Of a stretch of 64,000 nucleotides of DNA, positions 16,400 through 57,191 are shown one piece after another. The notes beneath the pieces are model-generated. The model was not told the origin of the DNA. It saw nothing but the letters and a program-made list of their open reading frames with translations, and did no database searches. This stretch comes from Escherichia phage Lw1. The stretch is from the sequence record KC801932; one strand, 5' to 3'. Numbering within the stretch: position 1 is the stretch's first letter; each line of letters begins with the position of its first letter. The position numbers and the translations under genes were made by a program.

Positions 16400-16920
16400 A
16401 ATTACTTCATATGATCCGCGCCATAAAACACAGTCAGGGTTCTCGATGTGTATCGACCCGTGTAGGTGCGGTTATTGTAATGAATGGGCGCGTGGTGTCC
16501 CAGGGTTCGAATAATACGGTTGATTCCGATTGTCGTTGTGCTGATCATAACGAGCACATGCTGAATGATGAAGGTAAGCTGAAAGCTGTTCACCGTCCAG
16601 AACATTCAGCATGGTCGAACGACAACGAGATCCACGCCGAAATGAAAGCGTTGCTAAGTGCTCATACTAATGGTATCATGCTTAACAACGCAGAGTTGTA
16701 CACAACCACTTCACCGTGTCCGAACTGTGCAAAACACATCGAATGGTATGTTGCGATTGGTGCAATAACTGCTGTATACTACCTCGATAAATACGATCGT
16801 GGTAATGACGAATGGATTTCACGTTTGCAAAAATATGGTTGCAGAGTGGAACAAATTAAACGGGAAGAGTTGGAACCTCATATCAACTTTTCTAATTTAG
16901 TGTTTAACAACAATGAGTAA
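16396..16920 (+). CDS. cd: dCMP deaminase
   Basis: Zinc-binding deaminase motifs HAEMKAL and SPCPNCAK. Confidence 0.85.
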   Translation: MKLLHMIRAIKHSQGSRCVSTRVGAVIVMNGRVVSQGSNNTVDSDCRCADHNEHMLNDEGKLKAVHRPEHSAWSNDNEIHAEMKALLSAHTNGIMLNNAELYTTTSPCPNCAKHIEWYVAIGAITAVYYLDKYDRGNDEWISRLQKYGCRVEQIKREELEPHINFSNLVFNNNE

Positions 16921-16924
16921 CAAA

Positions 16925-17269
16925 ATGTCTGAATTGAAAGTAAAAGCATCTTTTGAATACGTGATTATCGAAGCAACTGCTCGACCGCAGGGTTCCGAAA
17001 TCGTATCATCAACTGGCATTGTAGTAGGTGTGCGTCAACAAGGGGAACAACCGTATTTTGGTAAAGTTGTTTCTGTAGGGCCGGAAGTACCGGAAGAAAA
17101 CGCAAAAGCCCTGTTGGGTAAAATGGTTCCGCTTCCACATGCTCAAATGGCGAATGTTCCAGATCCAGACCTGGTTGCTGGCTACATTTCCGAAAAAGAA
17201 GCAAAAGAGAAAGAAACGAAATACGTTTCTGCACATTACAAAGCTGTTCAGGCAATTTACGAGATCTAA
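16925..17269 (+). CDS. 31: Co-chaperonin gp31 (GroES-like capsid folding cofactor)
   Basis: approx 114 aa; matches remembered T4 gp31 pattern (GIVVG.R.QGE, SVGPEVPE, HYKAV); order cd-31-rIII as in T4. Confidence 0.7.
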   Translation: MSELKVKASFEYVIIEATARPQGSEIVSSTGIVVGVRQQGEQPYFGKVVSVGPEVPEENAKALLGKMVPLPHAQMANVPDPDLVAGYISEKEAKEKETKYVSAHYKAVQAIYEI

Positions 17270-18522: not shown

Positions 18523-19092
18523 ATGCGCTATTTAAAATACGCAAGCTGGATCTTACTGGTTCCGGTAGACATTATCACAGGTATCCTGGCTATCTTGCTG
18601 GCCCCCTTCGTGGTTCCGTTCTATGACGAAAAAGTAGGACATTTGCCTAAAGGGTTCCGATGGATGGAAACCTACGACAACCCGATCGATGGTGACGGTG
18701 GACACATCGAACGCTGGAAAGATATTCGAAAATGGGGCGCTGTCGGTGTCTATGCTCAACGTGTAGCATGGCTATGGCGTAACAAGGCGTATAACTTCGC
18801 GTATCACGTGCTGGGACGTGAGTCTATATCACACACCTACTGGAAAGGAAACAAACTGGTAGACAGCAGTTCAAGCGATCCTAAACATCACGGCTTCCTG
18901 GTGATGTGGAACGAATCTGCATGGGGTGTGTTCGGCTTCGTGCCGTGGCTACGGGTGCATAACATTCAATTCTGTCTGCGTGTCTATTGCGGGTGGAAAC
19001 TGAAATCAGAAGTAAACAACCCAGACAACAAAGACCGTGTGATGCTGGCATTCCACATCAACCCGTTCCGGTTCTATAAGGTAAACACATGA
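18523..19092 (+). CDS. Hypothetical membrane-associated protein
   Basis: GGAG RBS before ATG 18523; N-terminal hydrophobic helix. Confidence 0.4.
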   Translation: MRYLKYASWILLVPVDIITGILAILLAPFVVPFYDEKVGHLPKGFRWMETYDNPIDGDGGHIERWKDIRKWGAVGVYAQRVAWLWRNKAYNFAYHVLGRESISHTYWKGNKLVDSSSSDPKHHGFLVMWNESAWGVFGFVPWLRVHNIQFCLRVYCGWKLKSEVNNPDNKDRVMLAFHINPFRFYKVNT

Positions 19093-19367
19093 TCGAAGAT
19101 ATCAAGGGGTATAAACCCCATACCGAAGAAAAGATTACGATTGTAAATCGTATCAAAGCAGTTGAAAATGAAATGGGTGCAATCCTCGATGATCTGGATA
19201 AACGATATTCAGGAGACTATGCGTGTTCAGATCTGGAATCACACACAGAAAAAGAACTTGATGAAATGCTCGAACGCACACATCAAATTCAACTGGCAAA
19301 AGACCGACTGAAAGAAGCCTCTATGTGGGCGTGTCGTGCGGTATTCCAGCCAGAAGAAAAGTATTAA
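19089..19367 (+). CDS. Hypothetical protein (92 aa)
   Basis: ATGA-coupled ORF; followed by weak hairpin and T-run. Confidence 0.4.
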   Translation: MIEDIKGYKPHTEEKITIVNRIKAVENEMGAILDDLDKRYSGDYACSDLESHTEKELDEMLERTHQIQLAKDRLKEASMWACRAVFQPEEKY

Positions 19368-19422
19368 AACCAAGCCGTTGCCGAAAGGTAGCGGCTTTTT
19401 TCGTTTTTATGAAAAATAATGC

Positions 19423-20244: not shown

Positions 20245-20706
20245 TGAAACAATATTTTATTGAAGCGGCAGATCGTATCGTTCTGGCTATGCTGAACTGG
20301 AACCGTCGTCAGGATGTTTCTATCATGGCATCAACCAACGGGACAACATACGACCGTTATGATCCGGCGCGTGGACTCCATGAACCCTATGAGGTGAAAG
20401 AGTGAATGTCGAAACGATGGATGTAATGTTGGTCATTGTATCTTTTATTTTGGGTTATTGGGCGGCATCATGAAATACTATGGATTCAAAACGAGTCATT
20501 TCGGTAAAGCATACCGCACTGACAACATCGATCGCAAACGTCCGTACTATGATTCCCTTGTACGTGCAGGGCGCAAACGTGCTCGCCAGGAAGGGAAGAA
20601 GCAAGGAGAATCCGAGCTATGAACTGGAAACAAATAGTCGGAATTATTGCAGGTGTTATCATCGGACGCGGTTTGTATGATCTAATCTTTTCGGCGGGGG
20701 TTCATT

Positions 20707-21147
20707 GTGGACATTGGTTCGGGTAGTCAATATCCATCATGTGCATTGAGCAACTTCGCCCCGCATCCGTTCACTTTTGACGGGGTAGAATGTGCATCAA
20801 TGGAGGGTTTTTTACAAAGCCTGAAATACAGCAACCCAGATATGCAAGCGCATGTGTGTACTCTGGTAGGTAAAGCCGCCAAGTTCAAAGGCAAGAAAAA
20901 GAAATGGTATCGCGATCAGACCCTATACTGGAAAGGTACACCGATTCACCGTGAGTCCGAAGCGTATCAGATTCTTATCGAAAACGCGTACAATGCTCTT
21001 TTCCTGAATGACGGGTTTCGCCGTGCGTTGAAAGCAACCGGAAAAAGCACCTTGACTCATTCAATGGGAAAGAATAAGATGAATGAAACAGTGCTCACCG
21101 AACGTGAGTTTGTTCGAAATTTAACCCGACTAAGGGATCTGCTATGA
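20707..21147 (+). CDS. NADAR-domain protein (YbiA-like, ADP-ribose/N-glycosidase family)
   Basis: LSNF.PHPF..DG....S.EGFLQSLK signature of NADAR/DUF1768; probable GTG start at 20707 preceded by GGGGG. Confidence 0.6.
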   Translation: MDIGSGSQYPSCALSNFAPHPFTFDGVECASMEGFLQSLKYSNPDMQAHVCTLVGKAAKFKGKKKKWYRDQTLYWKGTPIHRESEAYQILIENAYNALFLNDGFRRALKATGKSTLTHSMGKNKMNETVLTEREFVRNLTRLRDLL

Positions 21148-21829: not shown

Positions 21830-22050
21830 TGAGTTATGTAGTGTATTTTGACTGTTCGGATCTCGACCCGTTTGTTCTGCAACAGGCGAAGAAATACCAT
21901 CAGGATATCGTTGGCATCAGTGTAACAAATGATGATATGCTGTGCATTGAATTTGATTATTATCGTACATTCGAACGTGATTATTTCATGGGTGAACTGA
22001 ACGCGTTCAAAAGTACCCTTTTCTTTGATCGTTATGAGGTTAAATCTTGA
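21830..22050 (+). CDS. Hypothetical protein
   Basis: AGGGG RBS before ATG 21830. Confidence 0.35.
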
Positions 22051-22664
22051 AACCAGTTATTCTTACCGATATTGACGGGATCGCCGTAAAATGGCAAAGC
22101 GGCCTCCCGTTCTTTTTGTCTAAACACAATATGCCTACTGATATTGCTCTGGACATGGTCACCGATGAAAGATTTCGTGATATGACCGAAATATTCGGGT
22201 GTGATCACCAACTGGCTAAAATCCTGATGGAAGAATATAACAACAGTTCGTTTATTCGCTATCTAAGCGCGTATGACGATGCGTTAGTTGTGATCAACCG
22301 TCTGAAAGCCAAATATGATTTCGTCGCTGTCACGGCGCTGGGAACCACTCCTACGGCAAGTCTGAACCGTATTGCAAACCTGAACACATTGTTCCCGTCT
22401 GCATTCAAAGAAGTGATGGTCGTCGGACATGGTGAAACAAAAACACATCGTTACCTGGAAGCAAAAGCCAAATACGGATCGCGGTTGGTTTGCTTTGTTG
22501 ATGACCTTGCGGTAAACTTAAACGAGTGTCATAACGTCATCAGTCAGTTGCCGTTATTTCACATGTTGCGTGGTGAACGTGAACAACCAAATGTTCCGCA
22601 CAGTATCGTAAAATCATGGTTTGAAATTGAAGAGAAATTAGATGATCTTATCAATATTGAATGA
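22047..22664 (+). CDS. HAD-superfamily hydrolase (possible 5'(3')-deoxyribonucleotidase)
   Basis: N-terminal DxDG motif (ILTDIDGIA) and later FVDD; TTG start with AGGT RBS. Confidence 0.45.
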   Translation: MKPVILTDIDGIAVKWQSGLPFFLSKHNMPTDIALDMVTDERFRDMTEIFGCDHQLAKILMEEYNNSSFIRYLSAYDDALVVINRLKAKYDFVAVTALGTTPTASLNRIANLNTLFPSAFKEVMVVGHGETKTHRYLEAKAKYGSRLVCFVDDLAVNLNECHNVISQLPLFHMLRGEREQPNVPHSIVKSWFEIEEKLDDLINIE

Positions 22665-24165
22665 ACTTGCATCGACTCTGAAAACCTCAGAGAAGGAAGC
22701 AATTTTAAAACGTAATGCAAACAACCTATTGTTGAAAGAGATTTTCCGAATTACGTACACAAAACAGATTATGTTCTATGTGCGTAAGTTTCCCCAGGTG
22801 GACGGCAAACCAGGAACAACCCCGCTATCAAATGCAATCGCGGACCTGATGTCCGATTTAGCATCGCGGAAGTATACAGGTAATGCAGCCCGCGATCGCC
22901 TGATGGATATTGTGTCATCAGTAAACGAGAACGATCGCGAAGTGTTGCGCCGTATCATTAACCGCGATCTTGAATGTGGTGCGGGTACAACTCTGCCAAA
23001 CCGCGTATGGAAGAAACTTATTCCAGAACAGCCTCAATGCCTCGCTACGCCGTTTAGTGAAAAAGCCTTAAAACGTATTCGCTTCCCTGCTTACTCTCAG
23101 CTTAAAGCCGATGGTGCGCGTTGTATGTCGGATCTGTTAGAAGACCAGATTCGCAAAGCAACCCGCGCGGGAAATGAGTATACAGGTTTGGTTGATCTGG
23201 ATAAGGATTTGAAAAAGATCCGCGAATATCTGGGTTATGATGTTGTGCTGGATGGAGAATTGATTTATGTCCCTGGTGGAAAATCCGTTGAAGTTCCTGT
23301 GTCTCCTGTTACGTTTAGCCTTGCTGGGTTTATGGGCGATGACGATGATTCTGTTACTGACTTTGTGGCTGATGTTAGGCGGGAAGCCACCGAGGGAGAA
23401 AAACAGGAAGAGGCGAAACGCGAAGAAGGAAACGGAATCGTAAACAAATCCCTGAAAGGCACTATCAGCGACGAAGAACAACAGAACATCGTTTATGTTG
23501 TCTGGGACATCATACCGTATGAAGTTTATTATGGTGATGCTCCGAGTGTTCAGCCTTACAAAGATCGCTTGTCTATCCTTGATGGTGTTATCGCTGGCAC
23601 TGGTGTAACATCGGTTCAGTTGATTCCTTCTATCCTGGTGCAAACCATCGCGGAAGCAAAACAGGATTACAACAATTACCGCAATGACGGTAAAGAGGGT
23701 TCAATCCTGAAAAACGTTGATTTCGTCTGGAAGGATTCACGCGTTGCGGATCAGGTTAAGTTGAAGAACAAAACCCCGATCGAACTACGAATCATCGACG
23801 TATACGCGCACACCAAAGAACCTCATAAGGTCGGCGGGTTTGTTGTTGAGGACTTATCAGGAGAAGCCAGGACGAACACAGGTTCCGGTTTAACTGATAC
23901 AGACTACCGTTACGATGAAGACGGTGTTACCCGCGTGTATATCCCGTTAGACGAACGTGGAGAACTGGATCGCGAGTATATCATGACGAACAAAGATGAC
24001 TATATTGGCGCTATCGTCGAAATGGAAGTTGACGGACTCCAGAAGTCTAAAACGCGTAAGAAGGGCGAACCTGAATACAGTTTCTTCTTGCCAATCATCA
24101 AGAAGATTCGACGCGATAAGACGGAACCTGATGATATTCATGTGGTTTTTGCCGATCTGTTTTAA
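22642..24165 (+). CDS. 30: ATP-dependent DNA ligase
   Basis: 507 aa; N-terminus matches remembered T4 gp30 (MIL.ILNE.AS, LTY, LECGA, IPEQPQ); KADGAR adenylation motif. Confidence 0.9.
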   Translation: MILSILNELASTLKTSEKEAILKRNANNLLLKEIFRITYTKQIMFYVRKFPQVDGKPGTTPLSNAIADLMSDLASRKYTGNAARDRLMDIVSSVNENDREVLRRIINRDLECGAGTTLPNRVWKKLIPEQPQCLATPFSEKALKRIRFPAYSQLKADGARCMSDLLEDQIRKATRAGNEYTGLVDLDKDLKKIREYLGYDVVLDGELIYVPGGKSVEVPVSPVTFSLAGFMGDDDDSVTDFVADVRREATEGEKQEEAKREEGNGIVNKSLKGTISDEEQQNIVYVVWDIIPYEVYYGDAPSVQPYKDRLSILDGVIAGTGVTSVQLIPSILVQTIAEAKQDYNNYRNDGKEGSILKNVDFVWKDSRVADQVKLKNKTPIELRIIDVYAHTKEPHKVGGFVVEDLSGEARTNTGSGLTDTDYRYDEDGVTRVYIPLDERGELDREYIMTNKDDYIGAIVEMEVDGLQKSKTRKKGEPEYSFFLPIIKKIRRDKTEPDDIHVVFADLF

Positions 24166-24183: not shown

Positions 24184-24239
24184 AAAGCCCTTGCATACGT
24201 GCGAGGGCTTTGTTATATTACACACATCGAAACGAAACA
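24184..24239 (+). promoter_or_regulatory. PeSL-like promoter cassette, copy 1: TTGCAT-17-TATATT with spacer hairpin and conserved leader
   Basis: -35 24191-24196, -10 24214-24219 (TGT extended -10), hairpin aaagccc/gggcttt; leader ACACACATCGAAACGAAACAG. Confidence 0.55.
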
Positions 24240-24887: not shown

Positions 24888-25264
24888 AAAATGAACCAAG
24901 CAAGACTGTACGCCTTATCCGTTGGGAAGGCAACGAACTCCGTTATGAAGACGGCGACCGCGAATTCGTTCATGAAATGCTGGCGCATAATCTGGGATTG
25001 AAAAACGCTAACCTGGTGCAGATGCAGCAGACAGCAGATCCTGACACATGGCAATGTGTTATTGTTGAACTGAATCCTAACAAGGAATACACGGAAGATG
25101 AACTCTTTGTGCTTGTCCAGGACGTTCCAGCGCGTCAGAAATGTTTTATGATAGACATGCCACGGGAAAACTACGAGAACATCAAAAAAGCCCGTCAGAA
25201 GCCCAAAAACAACGTATTCGATCTGTTTATGGGCTATCATGAAGAACCACAAACAACGGCCTAA
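24884..25264 (+). CDS. Hypothetical protein (126 aa)
   Basis: ATGA-coupled to previous ORF; convergent with following minus-strand gene. Confidence 0.4.
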   Translation: MKNEPSKTVRLIRWEGNELRYEDGDREFVHEMLAHNLGLKNANLVQMQQTADPDTWQCVIVELNPNKEYTEDELFVLVQDVPARQKCFMIDMPRENYENIKKARQKPKNNVFDLFMGYHEEPQTTA

Positions 25265-26364
25265 GCCTCGCTTGTTTTGCTGTTATCGTTAGTCGCAGCA
25301 GCCACCTGTACACATTCCAATGTTTGCAGGTGGAAATCTTTTGATACGTCACGGATACATTCAACGATCAAATACTTACCCGCGTATTCATCCCCCAACA
25401 CTTCAATCATCCCCCCTACTTTAACATCCATTCGACCCTGATTAATATCAAACTTAATCCGTTTTTCATAACCGGACAGTAACTGACATTTAACCGCCTG
25501 GAATGGCTGGCCTTGTTTGTCGGGGTTCTGGAAGTTGGTATTGTATACCGCGTTCCGGTTCATTGTGATCCACGCGTTTTCAACGTCTGTACTTGCGAGT
25601 ATATCGCTGTATAACTTCTTGTCAGTCATCGAGAAACTAAAGAAACTTGCATCCCCTAACAGGGTAGTGTTATCCTTATACGTAATGTATTCAGCTTTCG
25701 TGAATACCAAAGAATCACCTAAAAACGGATTGCTTACGTTATACTTGTAAGCCTTTAACGGGGTTTGTGCTAGGATCTCCGTATTGCTTCGCATAAAGAT
25801 ACCGGAACCATCTTCCCACAAATAACAGAAGTCTGACGAATCAACGCTCTGACCGTTATCCCTTATGTAATCAAACACGGTTTCATACGTCCCGCTTAAA
25901 CATGCCGGAGGTATACGCACGTTTGAAGCATCAATGGTCGGGGTAATCAGCTTCATATCGTTGTATAGTGCCGTCATACACTCTGTAATCGTCTGTACGG
26001 CGTTATTACTGAATGAACGGGAGAACTTACGACGAAATACCGTATGCACCGGAGAAAGGTTTAGGCGCAATATAGAACGGTTCATATCATCGGTTTCGAC
26101 GTTCGAATACAGAACACCATAGTAATGCTGTTCCAACGTCTGATTATACTTGAAAGATACCTGAATAATTGGTTTCTCTGTCAACTGATAGATTAACTGG
26201 TTATCGTAGATCTGCATCAATGTTTCAGAAGTACCGTTGATAATAGTTTTCTCACTCATTGAGACAAGGGCAGGTAGCAATTCAAGATAGACGTTATCCG
26301 CAAACTTTTCATATGTTGGATATAATTTAACCGATACAATACGGTTTATAACTTTATTGGACAT
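25261..26364 (-). CDS. Putative baseplate hub subunit (possibly gp27-like)
   Basis: 367 aa; AGGGAGGA RBS; divergent from gp28-like gene; assignment by context and size only. Confidence 0.3.
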   Translation of the reverse strand: MSNKVINRIVSVKLYPTYEKFADNVYLELLPALVSMSEKTIINGTSETLMQIYDNQLIYQLTEKPIIQVSFKYNQTLEQHYYGVLYSNVETDDMNRSILRLNLSPVHTVFRRKFSRSFSNNAVQTITECMTALYNDMKLITPTIDASNVRIPPACLSGTYETVFDYIRDNGQSVDSSDFCYLWEDGSGIFMRSNTEILAQTPLKAYKYNVSNPFLGDSLVFTKAEYITYKDNTTLLGDASFFSFSMTDKKLYSDILASTDVENAWITMNRNAVYNTNFQNPDKQGQPFQAVKCQLLSGYEKRIKFDINQGRMDVKVGGMIEVLGDEYAGKYLIVECIRDVSKDFHLQTLECVQVAAATNDNSKTSEA

Positions 26365-26424: not shown

Positions 26425-27000
26425 ATGAACAAAAAGAACACACTTGATAAATTTATGGTTACTCGTTTAAACATCAAGAACAGCAAAAGCAAAATAGTTA
26501 CCTTGCCTACTGGTGAGAAAGTCACGATCCCGCGTCTGGGTTATCGTCATTTCACCCAGATTAAAGCAATGAAAGACCCTATGCAGTTGCTTGAATATAT
26601 CATCAACGAGATCAAACCGCGTGAGTTAACCGCAGCAGAAACTGAATTCCTTCTGATCCATTTGCATTACCATAATGATGATAAAGCAATGGAAGCATTA
26701 AAAGAGATCGGAATCAATCTGGATGATATGAAAATCAGCGAGGCTAAGTATGAATACACTTTCGATAACATTCGATTGGTATTCAATAAACCGACCTTGA
26801 TGCTGGATGATTTGGCTTTACTGATTAAAGAAGCATACGACAACGGGGAACCGATCGAACTTACGGACGATAACCGAATTCAATTAATTAACAGCCTGTA
26901 TCGTTATGAATATGACGATGTAAAACGTGGTGTACTCCAGGAAGTTTATATTGTGCATGAGGGGAAAACCATCAAAGGGCTTAACATCATCGGTGAATGA
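26425..27000 (+). CDS. 28: Putative baseplate distal hub subunit (gp28-like)
   Basis: 191 aa, first gene of colinear block ending in gp54/gp25; by position and size. Confidence 0.45.
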   Translation: MNKKNTLDKFMVTRLNIKNSKSKIVTLPTGEKVTIPRLGYRHFTQIKAMKDPMQLLEYIINEIKPRELTAAETEFLLIHLHYHNDDKAMEALKEIGINLDDMKISEAKYEYTFDNIRLVFNKPTLMLDDLALLIKEAYDNGEPIELTDDNRIQLINSLYRYEYDDVKRGVLQEVYIVHEGKTIKGLNIIGE

Positions 27001-28748
27001 TAATGGCTAACAATCCATATTACAGCGACGAACAACGCCGCAGGATGCAAAATCCAAAACCACAGCCACAACCCACCGTTCGTAAGATTAACGCAACGTT
27101 GGATAAGGCTTCGATGCAGGAATTGAAGGACATCAACGACAACACTCTCGAAACCGCGTTGAATACGCTGGATATCAAAGACAGTGTGAAGTCCTTCGAA
27201 GACCGTTTTAAAGAGAAATTTGCAGGGTTCCAGGAACAGTACGAACAGGATCAACAACCGTTAGCCGACCAGTTACCGGATTTTGTTGGTCCTTCTCGTC
27301 CTTCTGTTCTGACTGATAACAGCACGAATAGTGTTGATAATTCTGTTAGCGTATCAAATCAGAACAATCCGTTTAGTAAGCTGGAAGCACACACCAGCAC
27401 TATCGCAGACGCTATCACGAAGTTTATTGAACTGGCAAGCAAAAAGCCCGAACCAGCGCCGGAACCTGAACCCGTACCGGAAGAAGAACCAGAAGTTGAT
27501 AAGAAGAAAAAGAAAATACGCGATAAAGACAAAGACGAAAAGAAATTCAGTAAGAAAGTTCTGTTTCTTCTGGATGCGATCAAAAGCAATACGTCAGCTC
27601 TGTTGTCTCGTTTCATTGGTTATTCTCTGGAAACGATAGCGAAGTTTGCGAAGTGGACGTTGATTATCGGCAGTATCGTATTCGCGATCGAGGTGTTGGG
27701 TAAAGTTATTGCCTCGTGGTTTAATGATTTACTTAATGATGGGGAAGCATCCAAACAACTTTTTGGATCATATTTCAACAATATAAAGGCGTTGGCAAAA
27801 AGTATAGATGAAGGATTAGATAAATTAGGTGATAAAGATGCAACATTAGCAGAAAAATTAAAAGCTCTGTTAGTAGAACCATTTAAGATTCTGGGTAATA
27901 CCATTAAAACCGCAATCACGGAAGGTATCGGTAATCTGATTTACGCTCTGGGTGAATATACCGGATCTGAAACGATTACCAACGCCGGACGCGGAATGAA
28001 AGTATCAGCACTGCGCGACAAACAAAAATACGGTCTTGAAATTGATCCCGATGACCTGATTATGCTGAAAGAGCAAGAGATTCAGGATCAGAAAGATAAA
28101 ATCACACAGGCCCGTGAAAAGGTTGTTGAGCAAGTCAAAGCAACACAAGGCATGTTTAGCTATGGTTTCGGGCAACAGACAGAAGCACAACAGGTTCAGT
28201 CTAAGCACCTTGAAGAACTCCGTAACCAGGTTGATCTTGAAGAACAGATCACGAAGGAGAAAGAGAAAGAACTCCAGATGCTGAAAGATAACCCTAACCT
28301 GCTTAAAAAGCAAGTGTTGAAGGAAAACACCGCGAACGCTAAACGTGTTGATGATGCTAAACAGGTGGAAGCAGCGCAAAAGGCTACCAAACCAAAAGCA
28401 GAAAGTGAATTCGATCGGGGTGATGCTATTCTGGATAAAGACGAGATCACTGGCAAAGACAAAGAGTTAATGGAAAAGATCCTTGAATCTCTGGAAGAGA
28501 AGAACAATTCCAAAAAGCTCGATGAAGATGACAGCGAACGATATCGTTCTATGCTCGACCAATGGCAGAACAAAATTGCTGTTGTACCGGAAAGCAGCGC
28601 ATCAATCGACAAACAACCGGAACCTGTACGCGCACCTGTTGAAGCAACCGCATCAAACAATGTTCAGGTAAACAACAAAACAGTAAATAACACGGTTCAA
28701 CATTCTGTTCAACGAACCGAACGTAAACCGTTGATTGCATTAGCATAA
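26997..28748 (+). CDS. 29: Putative baseplate hub / tail length determinator (gp29-like)
   Basis: 583 aa (T4 gp29 approx 590), highly charged coiled-coil-rich, ATGA-coupled. Confidence 0.5.
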   Translation: MIMANNPYYSDEQRRRMQNPKPQPQPTVRKINATLDKASMQELKDINDNTLETALNTLDIKDSVKSFEDRFKEKFAGFQEQYEQDQQPLADQLPDFVGPSRPSVLTDNSTNSVDNSVSVSNQNNPFSKLEAHTSTIADAITKFIELASKKPEPAPEPEPVPEEEPEVDKKKKKIRDKDKDEKKFSKKVLFLLDAIKSNTSALLSRFIGYSLETIAKFAKWTLIIGSIVFAIEVLGKVIASWFNDLLNDGEASKQLFGSYFNNIKALAKSIDEGLDKLGDKDATLAEKLKALLVEPFKILGNTIKTAITEGIGNLIYALGEYTGSETITNAGRGMKVSALRDKQKYGLEIDPDDLIMLKEQEIQDQKDKITQAREKVVEQVKATQGMFSYGFGQQTEAQQVQSKHLEELRNQVDLEEQITKEKEKELQMLKDNPNLLKKQVLKENTANAKRVDDAKQVEAAQKATKPKAESEFDRGDAILDKDEITGKDKELMEKILESLEEKNNSKKLDEDDSERYRSMLDQWQNKIAVVPESSASIDKQPEPVRAPVEATASNNVQVNNKTVNNTVQHSVQRTERKPLIALA

Positions 28749-28759
28749 GGGAAATTTAC

Positions 28760-29854
28760 ATGAAAATCAAAGTTTTACAAGATACTGTGCAATCATTTGC
28801 AAAAATCAAAAATGCTGGCATCCCCTCTGGGGGTGCTACAACAACTAAAAACGCGTTGACACAACCAATCGTAACAGCGGAATTTCCTTCCCAACGTGCA
28901 GCAGGTATTGATAACGCTTATAACGCATCAAGCCTGTATAATAACGGCTTGCTGTTCACTGCATATGAATTCACTGGTGGATTTGCACCAGGCAGTAAAG
29001 ATAACTACCGTTCACTACGTCAAGCAGCACAGAACGCACAACAGATCCTGAGCGCGAATACAGGCAACGTTCGATATAAACAAGTTTTGAATACCCGTAC
29101 TATGGGTACGCTCAACCCCATTTGTCAAATACTTTTACCGCGAAGCCTGAACGATAACGAGGTTAACAGCCACCGTTACCAGGATGCAACCGATAGTATC
29201 GTTGCTAAAGGACCGTCAAGAGTTGTGTCTAACGTTATCTGGGGCGTTATTGAGTCTGCTAGTGGTGGTATTTTGGCAGACCGTAGAGAAGCAGTTGATG
29301 TTGGTACGAAAGCAGCGTTTCAAGGTTCTGATAAGCGCACAAAGATGTATTACAATACATTCGTTATCGAAAGTCGTTATGACCTGCTGGAACTTATTAA
29401 AATCTATTATCTGTTCACGGTGCTGGGATATGGTACGACATCAGGAGGAACTGCCGCTGAAATAGCAGAATTAGCTAAACAAACAATTAATAAAGCATCA
29501 ACAACAGGGGCAAAACTTATTAATAATGCAGCCGCTGGAAATGGCCCTACACCTACTGTATCTAATGGTTCGATTATAAGCGATCAGATGGTTGATTTTG
29601 TAACTAACATTGAAGTTATTAAATCACCTCCTGTATGGTTTATACGTGATTTCCAGACGGGCGACAGTTTACGGTTCCCTCATTCTACATTTGGGCCAGC
29701 AGGGATCACCAGCGTTCGTTTCGGGCGCACGATGGACAATATCGTAAATACGTTAAGAGAATCACCCAACACGCCAATATCCGTTGAAATCGAAATACAG
29801 TTCATGGAACTAATCGATATGCGTCAAGATTCGATTTTCGATGTTCAATACTAG
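28760..29854 (+). CDS. 48: Putative baseplate tail-tube cap (gp48-like)
   Basis: 364 aa, same length as T4 gp48; immediately upstream of gp54. Confidence 0.5.
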   Translation: MKIKVLQDTVQSFAKIKNAGIPSGGATTTKNALTQPIVTAEFPSQRAAGIDNAYNASSLYNNGLLFTAYEFTGGFAPGSKDNYRSLRQAAQNAQQILSANTGNVRYKQVLNTRTMGTLNPICQILLPRSLNDNEVNSHRYQDATDSIVAKGPSRVVSNVIWGVIESASGGILADRREAVDVGTKAAFQGSDKRTKMYYNTFVIESRYDLLELIKIYYLFTVLGYGTTSGGTAAEIAELAKQTINKASTTGAKLINNAAAGNGPTPTVSNGSIISDQMVDFVTNIEVIKSPPVWFIRDFQTGDSLRFPHSTFGPAGITSVRFGRTMDNIVNTLRESPNTPISVEIEIQFMELIDMRQDSIFDVQY

Positions 29855-29862
29855 GGGGAATA

Positions 29863-30726
29863 ATGTTCTATAGCGTAGATGAATTTTTGTCAGGAATGGC
29901 AAACCGTGACTTTCAGCGAAGCAACCTGTTTAGTGTTGTGTTTGCAACCAGTCCAGCATCACGCATTCTGGATAGTACGATCGGGAGTATCCGCGACACG
30001 TTAATTGATGGCACAATGAGTTCCATTAACGCGAACAACCCGAACGAGTTCATGAACGCTATCACAGGGGGTGTAAGAAAGCTATTCAGCTACACAGTTG
30101 ATAAGGCTATTATGTCCCTGAACAAAACCGGGTTTAGTAAGATTATGGGGGCGTTAAGCCCTCGTCTGATTACTTCCCTGTTTGGTGACAGCGTTTACGG
30201 GCAACTCTTAACAGAATTCCGTGATAAAATGATGTACAATATGGGTTTGAGTATCGTCGGTGTTCAGTTGCCTGGTAAAACATTAGGCTATGAATACGTG
30301 TACAACGGCGGTGTTCCTCAGATCCGATTTACCCGACCGGAGAACGGCGAATTGTCGTTAACGTTCCGTGTTGACTCAGAAGCACGTAACCTGAAAGTAT
30401 TCAATGAGTGGATGTCTGCTATTCGTGATGATATCACCGGACAGTTTGCATTCATTGATGAAGTATCAAGCGCGATCCAGGTTAACTTACATAACCGTGA
30501 CGGTGTTCCGCACAGCACATATGTATTCCAGAAATGTCTACCTGTCAAGGTAAGCAGTCCTGAATTAAGCTATGAGAACAACAACGAAATCTGGACATTC
30601 ACCGTTGACTTTGCGTATAAAACAGGTTGGCTTGTTGAAGCAGATAAAGAAGGTTGGGACGGGTTCAAACAATCCATCATCGAAGGTGCAGCAATTGCCG
30701 TTCGTGGTGTGGTATCAGGACAATAA
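29863..30726 (+). CDS. 54: Baseplate tail-tube initiator (gp54-like)
   Basis: Conserved blocks recalled from T4 gp54 (DFQR.N.FS.VFAT.P; IQVNLH.R.G.PH; SPELSY; FTVDFAYK). Confidence 0.7.
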   Translation: MFYSVDEFLSGMANRDFQRSNLFSVVFATSPASRILDSTIGSIRDTLIDGTMSSINANNPNEFMNAITGGVRKLFSYTVDKAIMSLNKTGFSKIMGALSPRLITSLFGDSVYGQLLTEFRDKMMYNMGLSIVGVQLPGKTLGYEYVYNGGVPQIRFTRPENGELSLTFRVDSEARNLKVFNEWMSAIRDDITGQFAFIDEVSSAIQVNLHNRDGVPHSTYVFQKCLPVKVSSPELSYENNNEIWTFTVDFAYKTGWLVEADKEGWDGFKQSIIEGAAIAVRGVVSGQ

Positions 30727-30753
30727 GGGGCTTTATGCCCCTTTGAGGTTAGC

Positions 30754-31497
30754 ATGATTGATATAATTCGCGTCAAACTACCCACAGGGGTAAAGCGTTT
30801 CCCTATGTTCACTGTTCGTGACCAGTTGAGTTTCTTGCTCACCAGTGCAGATATGGAAGGGAAAACGCTAACAGAACAACAACAGATGCTGGATGAAATT
30901 CTGGATATTCTTTATCCGGGTTACTCCCGTACAGAGCAAGAGAATATATTCACGCGGGTATATTGTGTATCATTCGGTAAGAGTGTAATCAAAATCCGTA
31001 TGAAAAATAAAGACAGTTACACAGAAGCATTCATGCAGGTTCATGATTATGTTTTGAATAATGAATATGCGCTTGATGATTCTATTACCCTGGGATTCAC
31101 ATTTCCTAAGAATCGAGACAACAGCGAACATCTATTCATTGAGTGTATCCAGTATGTGAAACAGGACGGTGAACGCTACGAATGGAAAGCGTTAGACGAT
31201 GACACGAAGAATGCTATTTTGGATCTGGTGTCTATCGAGGACATGGAGAACATCATTAAGCTGTTGCGCAAGTCGTGCCATGTTACTGTTCGTGATATCG
31301 AGTTTAGTGATTTGCTCACGTTGTACAAGATCCTGTTTAATAAAGCAGAATTGAATGAGTTCTTCAAAACCAACTATTTGTTAAATAAGAATGCAGTACA
31401 CATTGAACCTATAATGAATGCAAGCCCGATGGAACGTTCAATATACGTTGCATTACTGGCAGAAGATTTGAAACGAAAAGAGAATCCAAATGCGTAA
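30754..31497 (+). CDS. 51: Putative baseplate hub assembly catalyst (gp51-like)
   Basis: 247 aa (T4 gp51 approx 249); position before gp26/gp25. Confidence 0.4.
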   Translation: MIDIIRVKLPTGVKRFPMFTVRDQLSFLLTSADMEGKTLTEQQQMLDEILDILYPGYSRTEQENIFTRVYCVSFGKSVIKIRMKNKDSYTEAFMQVHDYVLNNEYALDDSITLGFTFPKNRDNSEHLFIECIQYVKQDGERYEWKALDDDTKNAILDLVSIEDMENIIKLLRKSCHVTVRDIEFSDLLTLYKILFNKAELNEFFKTNYLLNKNAVHIEPIMNASPMERSIYVALLAEDLKRKENPNA

Positions 31498-32047
31498 ACA
31501 TACTCCCAGACATATCCAAAAATATAATGTAACATATCGCCCTTTGACTGTTGGTGATGTCGGTGACACGGATAACTTCATTTTAGAAGGGAAGGTGTTC
31601 AAGCATCAACGCGATTATGTTTATCTTATGGCCCTGTTTGATACAATCAATAAGGATACTGTAGATCTGCAAATCAAATGTCCTGAATGTGGGGAACTGA
31701 TTAAGTTCACTCTGAATCGTCATCATATCCTGGTGGATGAATTCGAAGAAAAACTGTTTGGTAATGAAATTAAGATTTCGGTCGAACCACATACAACCGG
31801 AAAAGAAGAGTTACCCGAACTGATTAAGTTTGTTGTGATCGACGGGGAACAAATCTTATGGGACGATTGTAAGGAGTCCGAGAAAGAGGCTGTACTTGAT
31901 AGCATTGACTATCAGGTGTTTAAATCGATAAATACCGCTCTGGATAAGCCAGCAATGGTCGCAAACATTCCGGTTGGGTGTTCGTGTGGCTACAAACACA
32001 TAGTCTCTCTACGTGGCTTAGAGGCGTTTTTAAAGGTGGTTGGATAA
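31490..32047 (+). CDS. 26: Putative baseplate hub subunit (gp26-like)
   Basis: 185 aa with CPECG and CSCG cysteine pairs; position before gp25. Confidence 0.4.
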   Translation: MRKHTPRHIQKYNVTYRPLTVGDVGDTDNFILEGKVFKHQRDYVYLMALFDTINKDTVDLQIKCPECGELIKFTLNRHHILVDEFEEKLFGNEIKISVEPHTTGKEELPELIKFVVIDGEQILWDDCKESEKEAVLDSIDYQVFKSINTALDKPAMVANIPVGCSCGYKHIVSLRGLEAFLKVVG

Positions 32048-32440
32048 ATGGCTGTTAACCTTCGCTTACTATACAGCGATATCGACCCGAACTTAACGAA
32101 AGACTGGAACAAAGACGTTACCTCCTCGAAAGGGGCGGCAGCAGTAAAGAACAGTCTAATCGGTATCGTAACGACACAAAAAGGCACACGTCCTTTCGAT
32201 AGCAACTTTGGTTGTGAGATAGGAGAGCAGATTTTCGAGAACATGAACCCGTTAACAGCGGAATCAGTAAGAACCTCGATTGTATCCGCGATCCGCGCAT
32301 ACGAACCCCGTGTTTACAATCTGAATGTTGAAGTGATCCCACAGTATGACGAAAACGCGATCACCGTAACCGTTTACTACAGTATCATTGATGAACCGGA
32401 AGAGATTGAAAAAATCAAACTCCAGCTATCATCCTCATAA
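32048..32440 (+). CDS. 25: Baseplate wedge subunit gp25
   Basis: 130 aa; strong match to remembered T4 gp25 (LYSDIDP, DWNKDV, KNSL.GI.TT.KG.RPFD..FGC, FENM.PLTA, IKLQL.SS). Confidence 0.8.
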   Translation: MAVNLRLLYSDIDPNLTKDWNKDVTSSKGAAAVKNSLIGIVTTQKGTRPFDSNFGCEIGEQIFENMNPLTAESVRTSIVSAIRAYEPRVYNLNVEVIPQYDENAITVTVYYSIIDEPEEIEKIKLQLSSS

Positions 32441-35400: not shown

Positions 35401-37620
35401 TTACAGTTTAACTTCTTTTTCTTCCAGAACGATTTCGCAATCGAATGTTGCATCTTTCCAGAACTCATGCGGGATGATTTTGTCTGCTTTAACCGATACT
35501 TTGGTTTCTTCAAAATCCAGATCCGCAAACCAGGCGTGGCCTACAACGATACCGTACATTACACGGCTCAGGCGCTTGTTCAGTGCGCGTACTTCGTTGA
35601 TGGTTGCCTTTGTTTCTTTATCAAGGTACTCGATTACCTTATCCTTGTCAAGCGCTGCGAGTTCAGCTTTAACAGCATCGTAAGCCCACAGGATGATCAG
35701 GTCGCCGTTGTTCAGTTTCTTCTTACCTTCGGCACGTTTCGCAACAGTTGCCGCTACAGCAGGAAGGGAGGAAACACCCTTGATTTTCAGATTCAGTTCT
35801 TTCGACATATAAACATCAGTCGAATCGGTACGGGTTACTTTCGGGGAGAATCCATAATCACGAATACCCTGTTCAGATAACCATTCACCAGCGGCTTCAC
35901 CGTATTTCTGTTTCAGACCTTCGGCATTACGTAAACCGATCGCGTCGTCACGGAAGAACTTCATCACCTTCTGACGACCTTTCAGGATTTCCAGACGGAT
36001 AGAGTCGTTTACATACTCTTTACCGGAGATCCCGCGAGTCATCGCACGGTTAACCAGAGGCAGACTTGTAAAGTCAACCAGTACCGACATGCGGTCTTCA
36101 CCGATTTTTGCCAGCGGCTTGATAGTCAAACCAGAAGCGCGAAGGTTTTTCAGTGTCGGAATATCGGTTTCCAGTGGCAGAACCTTAACGTTTACGATCC
36201 CATCTTTAACGATGGTGAAGTTACGCACCTGCTTAGTTTCGATTTTTTCCGGCAGTCCCAGTTCTTTCTGTTTGCTTTCTGGGATAGTTACGTAACCTTG
36301 CAGATCCGTGTTAATGGAAATGTTAGGACGTGAACTGTTGCCGACCAGATGTTTAACCGATACTTTGGTTGTTGTCTGGGTAAATTTCGGTGTCCATATT
36401 TCGTGCGTTACCATTTGTGCGGCTAATGCTTTGCGTTCTTCCGGTGTTTTCGCATTTGCGATCTGTTCTGACAGTTGATCCAGAGTATCATCTTCTTTCT
36501 GTACTGTCTGACGGCCTGTACGGTTGTACGCCCAGTGTTCAGAAGACAGGTCGATCACTGTGTCAGTTTCTGCCAGCAGTTCGAGAGCATCAACCAGAGT
36601 GAATGCGTTTTCGTCTGGAACCATGTTGTAATCAACACCTTCAATCAGACGTTTACCCGCATCAACTACCGCTTCCGCGATCAGGTCTTTGGCGTTGGAA
36701 TAATCCTGCTTAGTAAAGCAGTTATCGTAAGCCTTAATCAGACGAACGTCACCGACTTTTTTCAGCACTTTCCATGCCAGATCAGGGTTCATGGTATGAA
36801 GTGCATGATACAGAACCACGTACAGAACCTGTTCACCTTCCATCGTAGCCGGATCAAATCCGTCGATATCGTTGATTGCGTTTTCACCCAGCGCCCAGAT
36901 GTTTTTGATGTGTTCTGGAACCAGTACAACACCATTTGCAGCGTTCAGGACATACACGCGCCCTTCGTCCAGATAGATCGCATGGGTAGCGTCACCGACC
37001 TTGACTTCAACACGCGGTGATGTTTGCGCGGTGATGATTTCAGCAAATGCTGGCTCGTATGCGTCGAAACCTTCAACGAATTTATGCAATGCGTTGGTTG
37101 CTTCTGCCATTTTTTCCAGCAGCGGACGGTTTACATAATAACCGTATTCCAAGAACGCGATGCTGTTAAAAGTCAGCGGGAGAACCGCACACGCTTTCAG
37201 GATGTCATCGGTACGCCAGCAGTTATCATAACCATCCGTAAGGAAGATCAGGCTGTTCAGATTGCCGTTTTCGGATTGCAGATCAGTTGCGATTTCCGCA
37301 GCCAGGTTCAGAGGTTCAACGAAACCAGTACAACCAGTGGGTTTCAGATAGCGGTCGATCGCGGTGCAGATGTTAGTCAGATCGGATACGTTGCTAACCT
37401 TCTCACCACGGAACACAGTACCGTAATCGCCTTTGCTGGAGAAGTACAGAATCGAAACTGTATCATCCTGTTTAACCAGACTCGCCAGGTTTGCTTTCAG
37501 ATGTTTACGGATTTTCGGGAGTTCGTTATACATAGAACCGGAAACGTCACACACGAAAACGTGGTTGGTCGGAGTCGGCTTCGATACTGCGTTTTTGAAT
37601 TCGATATTTGTAATTGACAT
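35401..37620 (-). CDS. von Willebrand factor A (vWA) domain protein, 739 aa
   Basis: N-terminal vWA fold with MIDAS-like DVSGS and later LTDGYD; large uncharacterised C-terminal region. Confidence 0.65.
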   Translation of the reverse strand: MSITNIEFKNAVSKPTPTNHVFVCDVSGSMYNELPKIRKHLKANLASLVKQDDTVSILYFSSKGDYGTVFRGEKVSNVSDLTNICTAIDRYLKPTGCTGFVEPLNLAAEIATDLQSENGNLNSLIFLTDGYDNCWRTDDILKACAVLPLTFNSIAFLEYGYYVNRPLLEKMAEATNALHKFVEGFDAYEPAFAEIITAQTSPRVEVKVGDATHAIYLDEGRVYVLNAANGVVLVPEHIKNIWALGENAINDIDGFDPATMEGEQVLYVVLYHALHTMNPDLAWKVLKKVGDVRLIKAYDNCFTKQDYSNAKDLIAEAVVDAGKRLIEGVDYNMVPDENAFTLVDALELLAETDTVIDLSSEHWAYNRTGRQTVQKEDDTLDQLSEQIANAKTPEERKALAAQMVTHEIWTPKFTQTTTKVSVKHLVGNSSRPNISINTDLQGYVTIPESKQKELGLPEKIETKQVRNFTIVKDGIVNVKVLPLETDIPTLKNLRASGLTIKPLAKIGEDRMSVLVDFTSLPLVNRAMTRGISGKEYVNDSIRLEILKGRQKVMKFFRDDAIGLRNAEGLKQKYGEAAGEWLSEQGIRDYGFSPKVTRTDSTDVYMSKELNLKIKGVSSLPAVAATVAKRAEGKKKLNNGDLIILWAYDAVKAELAALDKDKVIEYLDKETKATINEVRALNKRLSRVMYGIVVGHAWFADLDFEETKVSVKADKIIPHEFWKDATFDCEIVLEEKEVKL

Positions 37621-39981: not shown

Positions 39982-40236
39982 TTAAAAAAGATGCGTTAAA
40001 TGTCCTGCATTGCTGGGGTATTCGACGTAATCACCACGGAAGATGTTCAAATCTTTATCAAATTTAAACCCATGTCCTTGAACATCTTCATGACGAGATA
40101 CATAAGATACTCCATACTTTTCAAGGTCTTCCATATACATTTCGGTGATTCTCTTCGCTTTATCCAATCCGCGTCCCTCAAATCGAGAACGTCGATAATT
40201 CGCAAGAAGAAACGCATATAATTCTTCGTATGTCAT
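39982..40236 (-). CDS. Hypothetical protein (84 aa)
   Basis: ORF ATGA-coupled into methyltransferase gene. Confidence 0.4.
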   Translation of the reverse strand: MTYEELYAFLLANYRRSRFEGRGLDKAKRITEMYMEDLEKYGVSYVSRHEDVQGHGFKFDKDLNIFRGDYVEYPSNAGHLTHLF

Positions 40237-41144
40237 TTCAATACCTTTCTGATTTGTTTCGCTATGGCTTCGATCACGGGTATTGAAACTGAATTTCCCG
40301 CTTGACGATATGCCTGTTTTTTACTATCCGGTATGATAAATGAATCAGGGAATCCCTGCAAACGAAAACACTCACGGGGAGTAAGTCTTCTGGGGTTCTT
40401 TCCTTCCTGCAACACCAGACATTGAACGCCGTCCTTGTAATACTGCTGGGTTATCGTCCCAGTGTGCGTAGAATCGCTTGTGACGGCCTGATAACCAAAC
40501 CCCTTACCATTCGCCTTGTTTCGTTCCTTACGCTCTCTAAAGCCTTTCCACGCGTTATCTGATAGGGTGTATGAATCATCAGCATCTTCGAGGATATCGC
40601 CCACTCTCGTAGGGGTACGCGGAGGAACAGGAAACGAAAAGAATACATCATCCAGGAAGCAAACAATAAACACACGTTCACGTCTTTGTGGTAGTCCGAA
40701 ATCTTTTGTATTCAGTCGTTGATAGAATACGTTATATCCTTCGGCCTCCAGAAGCCCGTAAATCGTTTTAAACGTCTTCCCCTTGTCATGGGTTAGTAGT
40801 TCAGGCACGTTCTCAAAGAACAGCACACGGGGCTTTTTAGCGCGTATGATGCGGAGTATTTCAAAGAACACAGTACCGCGAACATCATCGAACCCCAGTT
40901 TTAATCCTGCTTTACTGAATGCCTGACACGGGAACCCAGCCAACAGGATATCGTGATCAGGTACTTCGGTTTCTTTTATCTGGAACAGATCTCCCTGTAG
41001 GTTATCATTGCCCCAGTTTTCGATATATGTTTGCTGTGCGAACTTGTCGATTTCAGACGTTAAAAGGCATTCGACACCGCCGAACGCCTTATCAAATCCT
41101 AATCGAACCCCGCCCACACCAGCACAGAGGTCAATTATTTTCAT
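40233..41144 (-). CDS. DNA (cytosine-5)-methyltransferase
   Basis: Canonical C5-MTase motifs: I DLCAGVGG, IV GFPCQAFS, VI ENV, VIII QRRERVF, C-terminal X. Confidence 0.85.
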   Translation of the reverse strand: MKIIDLCAGVGGVRLGFDKAFGGVECLLTSEIDKFAQQTYIENWGNDNLQGDLFQIKETEVPDHDILLAGFPCQAFSKAGLKLGFDDVRGTVFFEILRIIRAKKPRVLFFENVPELLTHDKGKTFKTIYGLLEAEGYNVFYQRLNTKDFGLPQRRERVFIVCFLDDVFFSFPVPPRTPTRVGDILEDADDSYTLSDNAWKGFRERKERNKANGKGFGYQAVTSDSTHTGTITQQYYKDGVQCLVLQEGKNPRRLTPRECFRLQGFPDSFIIPDSKKQAYRQAGNSVSIPVIEAIAKQIRKVLK

Positions 41145-41685: not shown

Positions 41686-41921
41686 TCCGTTTCGATACCG
41701 TATTTGTATGCGTCAATCCCCAGAGGGGTGATCAACAGACACATATCAGTATTTTCGTTTGGCGACTTAAACGCCGCAGTTGCGTAACCTTTTTCAATCA
41801 GGGCATTACGCCCTGATTTACTGGGTACGTCATCGAAATCCAATGTTAACACCTGTGATGCATATCTGTAAAGTTTATACAGCACGTCAATTTCAGCACC
41901 GGATAATTTCGGGAATGTCAT
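41676..41921 (-). CDS. Hypothetical protein (81 aa)
   Basis: Coupled ORF. Confidence 0.35.
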   Translation of the reverse strand: MTFPKLSGAEIDVLYKLYRYASQVLTLDFDDVPSKSGRNALIEKGYATAAFKSPNENTDMCLLITPLGIDAYKYGIETEWH

Positions 41922-42916
41922 TTGTAGTACCCCACAACGTGATCGCGATAAACGCGTTCGATAAAGTCGTTCCAGAACTCGCGATCAACCTCTTTCGGAT
42001 AATTAGAGACTGCTGCAAGGCGTTCGACTTCACCCATGATTTCTTCCAGCTTTTCCTGGACAAAAGTGAAAGGTTTCGTTCCGGCTTTAACTTCTTTTAA
42101 AAGCTGGCTCTCTTCCAGAGGATATACGATATCACCATGTTTGTAAATGCTGATAAGCTGTAAGCCTCCGCGCAATGCGTGAGAAAGTGCTTTCCAGTCG
42201 ATCCCGTTGTTGGCTTCTGCCTGTCTTGCTCGTTCACCATATTCGTCCCAGAGTTTATACACTGACTTTTTCATTTCAGCTACGGTGATCGTAGACTGGA
42301 ATTTGCGCCCCAGCACTTCATAGAAGTCCTGACAACCGGATTTCAGGGTTTTGTCTGTAGTGAATCGACAGAACTCATTGGTCGGGAATGTGTGAGAGAC
42401 TTCACCAACTTTGATGTGATGTGTTGCGTCACCCAGATTAGACGGCATACGAACAATGCGGCTATTTGGTGTATCCTGCAACACATCGTATACTTCACGC
42501 AGTGCAGCCAGGCGAGAACCTTTAACGCCATACTTCGCCGCTTGCTTACGAACATAACCAAACAGGCCAGTTAGTTCCGTAGTGTAGAAACGTGAACGGT
42601 TAGCGCGGATATACTGCCAGATTTCGGAGTTAGCGATCATCTTACTATCATCAGCATGAAGCATATCGAGCGCTACGGTATCACCATCACACGCAAGGCT
42701 AATGAACTTAGGCAGACTATACAACTGACGGTCGATGTCGTCTACGGTGTTCTTAGAGCTTTTATCGCCCGTGCTCGTGTCGATAGTCTTCGGGGCTTTA
42801 CCCAGTAAGATATCGCGTGGATGCGGGAGAAAGATCCCTTTATAATCTTTGTCGCTTGTCGGGGTGTTCAGTCCATACAGGTGAGAACCGAACACAGTTT
42901 CCATTACAATTTTCAT
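41918..42916 (-). CDS. Nucleotidyltransferase-fold protein (Pol-beta superfamily), 332 aa
   Basis: N-terminal GS...SDxD signature (FGSHLYGLNTPTSDKDYKGIF). Confidence 0.5.
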   Translation of the reverse strand: MKIVMETVFGSHLYGLNTPTSDKDYKGIFLPHPRDILLGKAPKTIDTSTGDKSSKNTVDDIDRQLYSLPKFISLACDGDTVALDMLHADDSKMIANSEIWQYIRANRSRFYTTELTGLFGYVRKQAAKYGVKGSRLAALREVYDVLQDTPNSRIVRMPSNLGDATHHIKVGEVSHTFPTNEFCRFTTDKTLKSGCQDFYEVLGRKFQSTITVAEMKKSVYKLWDEYGERARQAEANNGIDWKALSHALRGGLQLISIYKHGDIVYPLEESQLLKEVKAGTKPFTFVQEKLEEIMGEVERLAAVSNYPKEVDREFWNDFIERVYRDHVVGYYK

Positions 42917-45809: not shown

Positions 45810-45956
45810 AACGTGCTCCACGTTTAAAGGGTAATCATAAAACAGACGCAATAATCAATACACCAAGCAAACCGCCAATAAAGCCGAAGAATAGCGAAAT
45901 GAAGATAGATAAGATGATCTGTTTTATGTTCATTATAGTATTCTCGTTCTAAGAAT

Positions 45957-56880: not shown

Positions 56881-57191
56881 TTACTTTTGATTCTGTTGCA
56901 TTCTTCCGCACACTCTTTTTCCGCAAGGATTTTGCGAACAACCGCGTTTCTGATTTTCCAGAGATAATCGATCATCTGCATATCTTCGGGAGTGTGATAA
57001 CCTTTCATATCGCATTCAAATACGATAGCATCGCGTTCTGACATTGCCATTATCGCGGTAGCCGAACAAATGGTCATCCCACTATATTTTTCAATCAACG
57101 ATTCCAGTGTACGCTTTTCTGCCGGAATGTCAACAGTTATCGGAACAGGACGGATTCTTGTAGTCGAATCGTCGAAGGATTGATAAATCAT
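56865..57191 (-). CDS. Hypothetical protein (108 aa)
   Basis: ORF directly downstream of radical-SAM-like gene. Confidence 0.35.
   Translation of the reverse strand: MIYQSFDDSTTRIRPVPITVDIPAEKRTLESLIEKYSGMTICSATAIMAMSERDAIVFECDMKGYHTPEDMQMIDYLWKIRNAVVRKILAEKECAEECNRIKSKWGVL

Follow-up and report, generated by a model that had tools for sequence, protein, structure and literature searches.

A T4 gene 30.3 orthologue in an RB16/RB43-type phage, probably encoding an AdfN-type anti-DarTG1 ADP-ribosylglycohydrolase

Positions 20707-21147 of the window, by which we mean the whole 64-kb stretch of phage DNA analysed here, raise the question of whether a small phage protein could remove ADP-ribose placed on nucleic acid by host defences. 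The original prediction had read this frame as a NADAR-domain enzyme and had grouped it with a macrodomain gene and a NatV gene as three ADP-ribose/NAD-related functions turned against such defences. We consider it probable, at roughly 80%, that the gene encodes an orthologue of T4 gp30.3, that is AdfN, the anti-DarT factor NADAR (Johannesman et al., Nat Commun 2025, PMC11825919), and hence an anti-DarTG1 DNA ADP-ribosylglycohydrolase. The gene and the elements at its start are as follows.

20707..21147, + strand: adfN, the gene 30.3 orthologue, encoding a 146-aa phage NADAR from a GTG start; NADAR core, no extension.
20692..20700, + strand: G-rich Shine-Dalgarno-like run (GGCGGGGG), 6 nt 5' of the adfN GTG; read from the sequence, its function presumed.
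20619..20726, + strand: 35-aa hydrophobic small ORF, read from the sequence, whose last 20 nt lie within adfN.

The predicted frame was recovered in the ORF list at the same coordinates, on the + strand, with a GTG start and a length of 146 aa. Two close relatives (~90% DNA identity) carry ATG at the codon of the adfN GTG, the database homologues of the protein share the first residues 'MDIGSG', and the Shine-Dalgarno-like run is suitably placed; the GTG start is well supported. The overlap with the 35-aa ORF suggests tight packing and possibly translational coupling, and the ORF 3' of adfN begins at 21144 via an ATGA overlap. The gene is present as a single copy in the 64-kb window.

To place the protein, it was aligned with T4 gp30.3, and the alignment ran from the first to the last residue of both (BLASTP, 42% identity, E = 2e-36); T4 gp30.3 in turn had one match in the window, namely 20707-21147. 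The family assignment was equally direct, with a match to PF08010 (Phage_30_3, phage protein gp30.3) at E = 9.9e-56 and 187.8 bits (cutoff 36) that covered profile positions 2-138 of 138, a profile on which T4 gp30.3 scores 237.5 bits. A match to PHROG 652 was also obtained (E = 2.7e-52), in which adfN covers just positions 129-272 of a 296-position profile. T4 gp31, gp30.3, gp30.2 and gp30 each place once in the window, in T4 order and on one strand, and the syntenic markers and possible limits of the block are listed below.

16913..17269, + strand: gp31 homologue (GroES-like co-chaperonin; tblastn, 37% identity, E = 2e-16 to T4 gp31), the upstream syntenic marker.
19372..19397, + strand: terminator-like hairpin from the consensus scan only, 5' of the small-ORF block that holds adfN.
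22047..22664, + strand: T4 gp30.2 homologue (tblastn, 47.5% identity, E = 2e-57; phrog_420, unknown function), a syntenic marker.
22642..24165, + strand: DNA ligase, gene 30 (Pfam DNA_ligase_A_M; 39% identity to T4 gp30, E = 1e-99), a syntenic marker.
24184..24211, + strand: terminator-like hairpin from the consensus scan only, directly after the ligase gene.

By alignment and synteny, the window gene is the T4 gene 30.3 orthologue of an RB16/RB43-type T4-like phage. The DNA around adfN is 87-88% identical to that of Cronobacter, Enterobacter and Klebsiella phages, and among its closest relatives, the records examined give the classification Straboviridae; Pseudotevenvirus. Window positions 26-50 kb are 89-92% identical to, and collinear with, Citrobacter phages IME-CF2, CfP1 and Miller and E. 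coli phage RB16, and the hosts of the group comprise Enterobacter, Klebsiella, Citrobacter, Cronobacter and E. coli. The window is transcribed in opposite directions on either side of its baseplate genes, with positions 1-24165 on the + strand and 32478-63845 on the - strand; of the baseplate genes themselves, gp27 (25261-26364) is on the - strand and gp28 to gp25 (26425-32440) are on the + strand. Since this two-direction layout is collinear with RB16, IME-CF2, Miller and CfP1, it is a feature of the lineage and not an assembly artefact.

The two hairpins mark possible 5' (19372..19397) and 3' (24184..24211) limits of the adfN transcription unit, in a window where terminator-like sites were not enriched over shuffled sequence (8 observed, 6.2 expected in the consensus scan). 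Promoter and terminator scans around adfN likewise returned sites no commoner than in shuffled sequence, and a MotA-box pattern search gave 5 matches against 3.3 expected, none of them near adfN, so that any statement on the timing of adfN has synteny with T4 early/middle genes as its sole basis. Within the same block, 1.3 kb 5' of adfN, a 92-aa ORF (19089-19367, + strand) carries the Pfam PF24729 Acb2/Tad1 hairpin domain (E = 2e-17, 63 bits, cutoff 27). Acb2/Tad1 proteins act as sponges for cyclic nucleotides and so oppose CBASS/Thoeris-type defences; if this ORF has that role, the early block of adfN would hold a second counter-defence gene, followed by the hairpin at 19372-19397. The gp30.2 homologue (22047-22664, + strand) has an N-terminal 'DIDG' and a later 'FVDD' and looks HAD-phosphatase-like by eye; it had no Pfam match even at E <= 10 and no PDB sequence match, and its single-sequence AF2 model reached a pLDDT of 39.

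Homologues of the adfN protein amounted to 4725 protein clusters at 90% identity and 1169 representatives at 50% identity (E <= 0.001), and by tblastn they occurred in 1506 of 50,697 phage records, mostly of T4-like phages of Escherichia, Klebsiella, Shigella, Aeromonas, Acinetobacter and Vibrio. The gp30.3 family is thus essentially confined to T4-like phages, and AdfN homologues have been reported by the authors of the T4 work across the T4 superfamily (PMC11825919). Among metagenome proteins of the family (P0129, P0148, P0184, P0200 and P0237), some are two- or three-fold tandem repeats, such as one of 480 aa in which three stretches match, and others bear N- or C-terminal extensions of 100-400 aa.

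Whether the orthologue has kept the catalytic site was examined in three alignments, comprising 54 diverse gp30.3-family sequences (A1), a further family alignment (A2), and one that takes in T4 gp30.3 and YbiA (A3). The relevant positions are as follows.

20746..20757, + strand: L14-S15-N16-F17, the N-terminal 'LSNF' motif, common to YbiA as 'FSNF' (aligned by hhalign).
20803..20805, + strand: E33 (codon GAG), equivalent to T4 AdfN E36, the essential catalytic glutamate (BLASTP alignment).
20824..20826, + strand: K40 (codon AAA), equivalent to T4 AdfN K43, an essential lysine (alignment).
21058..21060, + strand: H118 (codon CAT), aligned to T4 H123, the phage-NADAR histidine of the last strand.

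S15 and N16 were invariant in A3 and at least 90% conserved in A1. Of the catalytic positions, E33 and H118 did not vary in A2 or A3, nor K40 in A2, and all three were conserved to at least 90% in A1. In T4 AdfN, E36A and K43A each abolish function, both in vivo and in vitro (PMC11257639). In the AF2 model of the window protein, H118 immediately follows the beta-bridge residue T117, and in phage NADARs generally a His in the last strand replaces the Glu of the YbiA family or the Asp of the DarG1 family (PMC11125620, PMC11543638, PMC12945103). We take H118 as the counterpart of the YbiA Glu on the basis of this published structural comparison, as gap placement is ambiguous in sequence alignments against YbiA, where either H118 or a later His may face the Glu because the phage proteins lack the 13-residue YbiA loop. 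With E33, K40 and H118 all in place, the original prediction does not fall for want of catalytic residues.

What such a site does is known from T4: work of 2024-2025 established its gp30.3 as a DNA ADP-ribosylglycohydrolase with specificity for guanine, able to neutralise DarTG1. [quoted passage not shown] Purified T4 AdfN strips ADP-ribose from DarT1-modified DNA while its catalytic mutants are inactive, and the protein neither binds DarT1 nor affects DarTG2 (PMC11257639, PMC11825919). In two independent in vitro studies, T4 gp30.3 hydrolysed guanine-ADPr and not thymine-ADPr, and cytidine-ADPr hydrolysis is listed for the NADAR and YbiA families only, not for phage NADARs (PMC11125620, PMC12945103). 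The predicted removal of ADP-ribose from nucleic acid bases by a NADAR is therefore just what the T4 orthologue does, on guanine in DNA (PMC11825919, PMC11125620, PMC12945103). The accompanying claim of a counter-defence role is supported within limits: an ADP-ribosylating defence, DarTG1, is documented as the target of T4 AdfN, but DarTG2 is not countered, and the enzyme is not known to act against Thoeris or NAD depletion.

In the reading that we favour, the DarT1 toxin of a host DarTG1 system would ADP-ribosylate guanines in the replicating phage DNA, and window AdfN would hydrolyse the ADP-ribose-guanine N-glycosidic bond through its conserved E33/K40/H118 site; removal of the adduct would then restore a replicable template and allow the phage to multiply. 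In effect, window AdfN would be an orphan counterpart of the DarG1 antitoxin, borne by the phage. Its enzymatic activity, guanine specificity and anti-DarTG1 role are predicted here from the experiments on the T4 orthologue. T4 AdfN is fully effective only in T-even infection, where it is thought to need a T-even factor (PMC11825919). A preprint had proposed that it requires hydroxymethylcytosine DNA, an idea ruled out by T4-GT7, a phage with unmodified DNA that still depends on and benefits from AdfN, which makes cytosine modification irrelevant (PMC11825919).

The same fold and chemistry might instead serve mainly another substrate, such as G-ADPr on RNA, the adducts of other ADP-ribosyltransferase toxins (YarT-like or pierisin/ScARP-like), or soluble ADP-ribose-derived immune signals. 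All four NADAR families hydrolyse G-ADPr on RNA in vitro (PMC12945103), such enzymes act whichever toxin has placed the adduct (LeRoux discussion, PMC11825919), the window protein is just 42% identical to T4 AdfN, and Iyer et al. have put forward a contextual argument in the same direction (PMC9503650). We nevertheless judge this unlikely, given that the only phenotype shown for the gp30.3 family is anti-DarTG1 activity through DNA de-ADP-ribosylation, that the catalytic residues of the window protein are identical to those of T4 AdfN, and that hydrolysis of a soluble signal by a gp30.3-type protein was not found reported in the literature examined.

The anti-DarTG1 reading also presupposes a functional allele, and natural loss-of-function alleles are known in the family: in RB69, a frameshift removes the last 15 residues and with them the C-terminal helix, leaving the protein non-functional (PMC11257639). 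In the window protein, this helix is intact.

21100..21141, + strand: C-terminal alpha-helix, residues 132-145 (DSSP on the AF2 model), aligned to the end of T4 gp30.3.

Compared with the two relatives at ~90% DNA identity (97-98% protein identity), adfN showed 30-40 synonymous and just 4 non-synonymous codon differences, with dN/dS values of 0.017 and 0.069; the gene is under strong purifying selection. Truncation was suspected where the tblastn match to a relative stopped at residue 136, as it did for EC-W2 and KLB3. It was rejected for the two sequences inspected, with EC-W2 being full length and divergent near the C-terminus, and the database homologue P0010 (with the same 93% coverage) showing C-terminal divergence in a full-length protein. 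That the window gene is an inactive or decaying allele like that of RB69 is accordingly most improbable, in view of its full-length ORF, intact helix and catalytic residues, its dN/dS of 0.02-0.07, and the full length of both EC-W2 and P0010.

A further question is how firmly the protein can be called a NADAR. In its generic form, the NADAR signature named in the original prediction is missing, as PF08719 (Pfam NADAR) gave no match to adfN at E <= 1 and TIGR02464 (YbiA domain) gave 16.1 bits against a cutoff of 73.7, which places the protein outside the YbiA family; a phmmer search against PDB sequences returned chance matches only (Ino80, E about 0.7). The HMM search proposed as a check thus yielded no generic NADAR profile, but it did yield PF08010 over the full profile, and membership of the superfamily stands by other routes. 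A profile of 54 family members found E. coli YbiA (2b3w) as its top match among PDB sequences (E = 0.048), hhalign of the family profile with E. coli YbiA gave 94.4% probability (E = 9e-8, 108 columns), and Foldseek against viral models returned gp30.3 relatives first and then proteins named NADAR. The protein has the NADAR (YbiA) fold with the core domain only, and these profile and fold comparisons support its place in the phage branch of the NADAR superfamily; the Pfam model that matches is PF08010 and not PF08719, and the assignment depends on these comparisons. YbiA scores 133 bits on PF08719 and, in further support of the superfamily link, has a weak match of 17 bits to PF08010. That the protein is a housekeeping N-glycosidase of the YbiA type, with riboflavin-pathway intermediates as its substrates, is scarcely credible, in light of the TIGR02464 and PF08719 results, the change of Glu to His, the absence of the 'EHTENDAYWGDGG' loop, and the restriction of the gp30.3 family essentially to T4-like phages.

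We then considered the two companion genes. Both exist at the domain level and on the minus strand: the macrodomain gene at 49143-49619 matched Pfam Macro (E = 1e-5), and the NatV gene at 44751-45809 encodes NMN-adenylyltransferase and Nudix domains. The proposed trio of ADP-ribose/NAD functions is therefore real at that level, but the genes are not clustered, with macro and NatV lying 24-28 kb from adfN on the opposite strand; the co-occurrence of NADAR, Macro and Nudix in large phage genomes has been described before (Iyer et al., PMC9503650).

The macrodomain protein had PDB sequence matches to 2fg1, 5e3b, 5m3i, 4j5r and 5m31, and the closest relatives of known structure are BT1257, S. coelicolor SCO6735, the M. 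tuberculosis and T. aquaticus DarG macrodomains, and human TARG1. Its sole NCBIfam match was antitoxin_DarG (E = 5e-6, macrodomain part only, far below cutoff). K83 aligns to a lysine that is conserved in the M. tuberculosis DarG macrodomain and that we take to be catalytic. Among the members of the DarG/TARG1/SCO6735 class are enzymes able to reverse the thymine ADP-ribosylation made by DarT2 (PMC12945103), and the PhiKZ macrodomain AdfM counters DarTG2; the macrodomain at 49143-49619 is a candidate for an AdfM-like role against DarTG2, the erasure of thymine ADP-ribosylation. The 2727 phage records with relatives of it include those of T4-like E. coli phages, where the gene adjoins vs, and the gene is absent from the syntenic site of RB16. 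This lineage may carry a two-enzyme kit, with AdfN for guanine-ADP-ribose (DarT1) and the macrodomain for thymine-ADP-ribose (DarT2), like PhiKZ AdfM. A joint reading, in which the phage has such a kit against DarT damage and/or the Pseudotevenvirus AdfN is helper-independent or shifted in substrate range, is tentative, has domain-level similarity as its support and is in our view doubtful.

The NatV gene (44751-45809, - strand, or to 45851 with a TTG start) encodes cytidylyltransferase-like and NUDIX domains and matched the NCBIfam bifunctional NMN adenylyltransferase/Nudix model (NF003786) at E = 3e-79, its 266.7 bits falling short of the curated cutoff (397). The frame at 44751-45851 (- strand) appears to encode a bifunctional NMN adenylyltransferase and Nudix protein of the NadM/NatV type. 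A Nampt partner (NadV; nicotinamide phosphoribosyltransferase) was not found among the large ORFs scanned in the window, and the window therefore gives no grounds for asserting a complete NAD-salvage (NARP2-like) pathway.

Several other genes on the minus strand were noted. In the accessory region, 40233-41144 encodes a C-5 cytosine DNA methyltransferase (PF00145, E = 9e-93), whose RB16 equivalent bears the annotation of a type II R-M methyltransferase; protection of phage DNA by an orphan methylase is a possible role. A fusion of PIN and PhoH ATPase is encoded at 52336-53679, an RlaP-type nucleotidyltransferase (nrdC.11) at 41918-42916, a 739-aa protein with a von Willebrand A domain at 35401-37620, and a protein with a SPASM iron-sulfur domain at 57188-58342.

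Since the window gene is the orthologue of a published gene, the finding is already known in kind, with the family, fold, mechanism and biological role published in 2023-2025, and knowledge of the family is unchanged by it. Its value lies mainly in annotation, as copies of adfN can be named AdfN-type anti-DarTG1 ADP-ribosylglycohydrolases; the copy in Enterobacter phage vB_EcRAM-01 (97.9% identical) is deposited as 'hypothetical protein', as are all annotated relatives listed. For candidate therapy phages directed at Klebsiella, Enterobacter, Cronobacter and Citrobacter, insensitivity to DarTG1-type defence is predicted wherever adfN is intact. Lying outside the Tevenvirinae, the window orthologue can also be set against T4 AdfN on the question of why the latter depends on a T-even infection context for full activity.

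Set beside known systems, the window protein differs from E. coli YbiA (PF08719, a riboflavin-intermediate N-glycosidase, 2b3w), to which it is about 20-24% identical; YbiA has the 'EHTENDAYWGDGG' loop and a Glu, whereas the window protein lacks the loop and has His for Glu, and the genomic and biological contexts differ. The DarG1 antitoxin NADAR (BC4488 family; for example, G. lovleyi 8bat and E. coli C7) is a 219-aa protein with an N-terminal extension and a catalytic Asp, against 146 aa in the window protein, of which 127 residues were aligned, with no extension and with His at the Asp position. DarG1 is beside the DarT toxin, whereas a Pfam scan of the seven ORFs neighbouring adfN detected no ADP-ribosyltransferase domain, and its small-ORF neighbours belong to PHROG families of unknown function. 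Of the features that define DarG1 antitoxins, the extension and the Asp are absent here and an adjacent darT1 was not found among the seven ORFs scanned, and T4 AdfN cannot substitute for DarG1 in uninfected cells (PMC11825919). AdfN-Bas32 and AdfN-Bas60, from T5-like and Vequintavirinae phages, are also phage-borne, guanine-specific anti-DarTG1 NADARs; they were acquired independently, belong to other NADAR clades (archaeal-like and bacterial stand-alone-like) and, unlike the T4-type family of the window protein, are active without phage infection. T4 itself is a member of the Tevenvirinae, whereas the window phage is a Pseudotevenvirus (RB16/RB43 type), and the two genes differ in that 58% of the residues are changed, the window gene starts with GTG, and four small ORFs lie between 30.3 and 30.2 where the T4 genes abut. 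With T4 gp30.3/AdfN, the window protein nevertheless shares PF08010, a length class (146 vs 152 aa), a NADAR core and nothing more, the E/K/H residues, the intact C-terminal helix, and a place in the 31 - 30.3 - 30.2 - 30 block.
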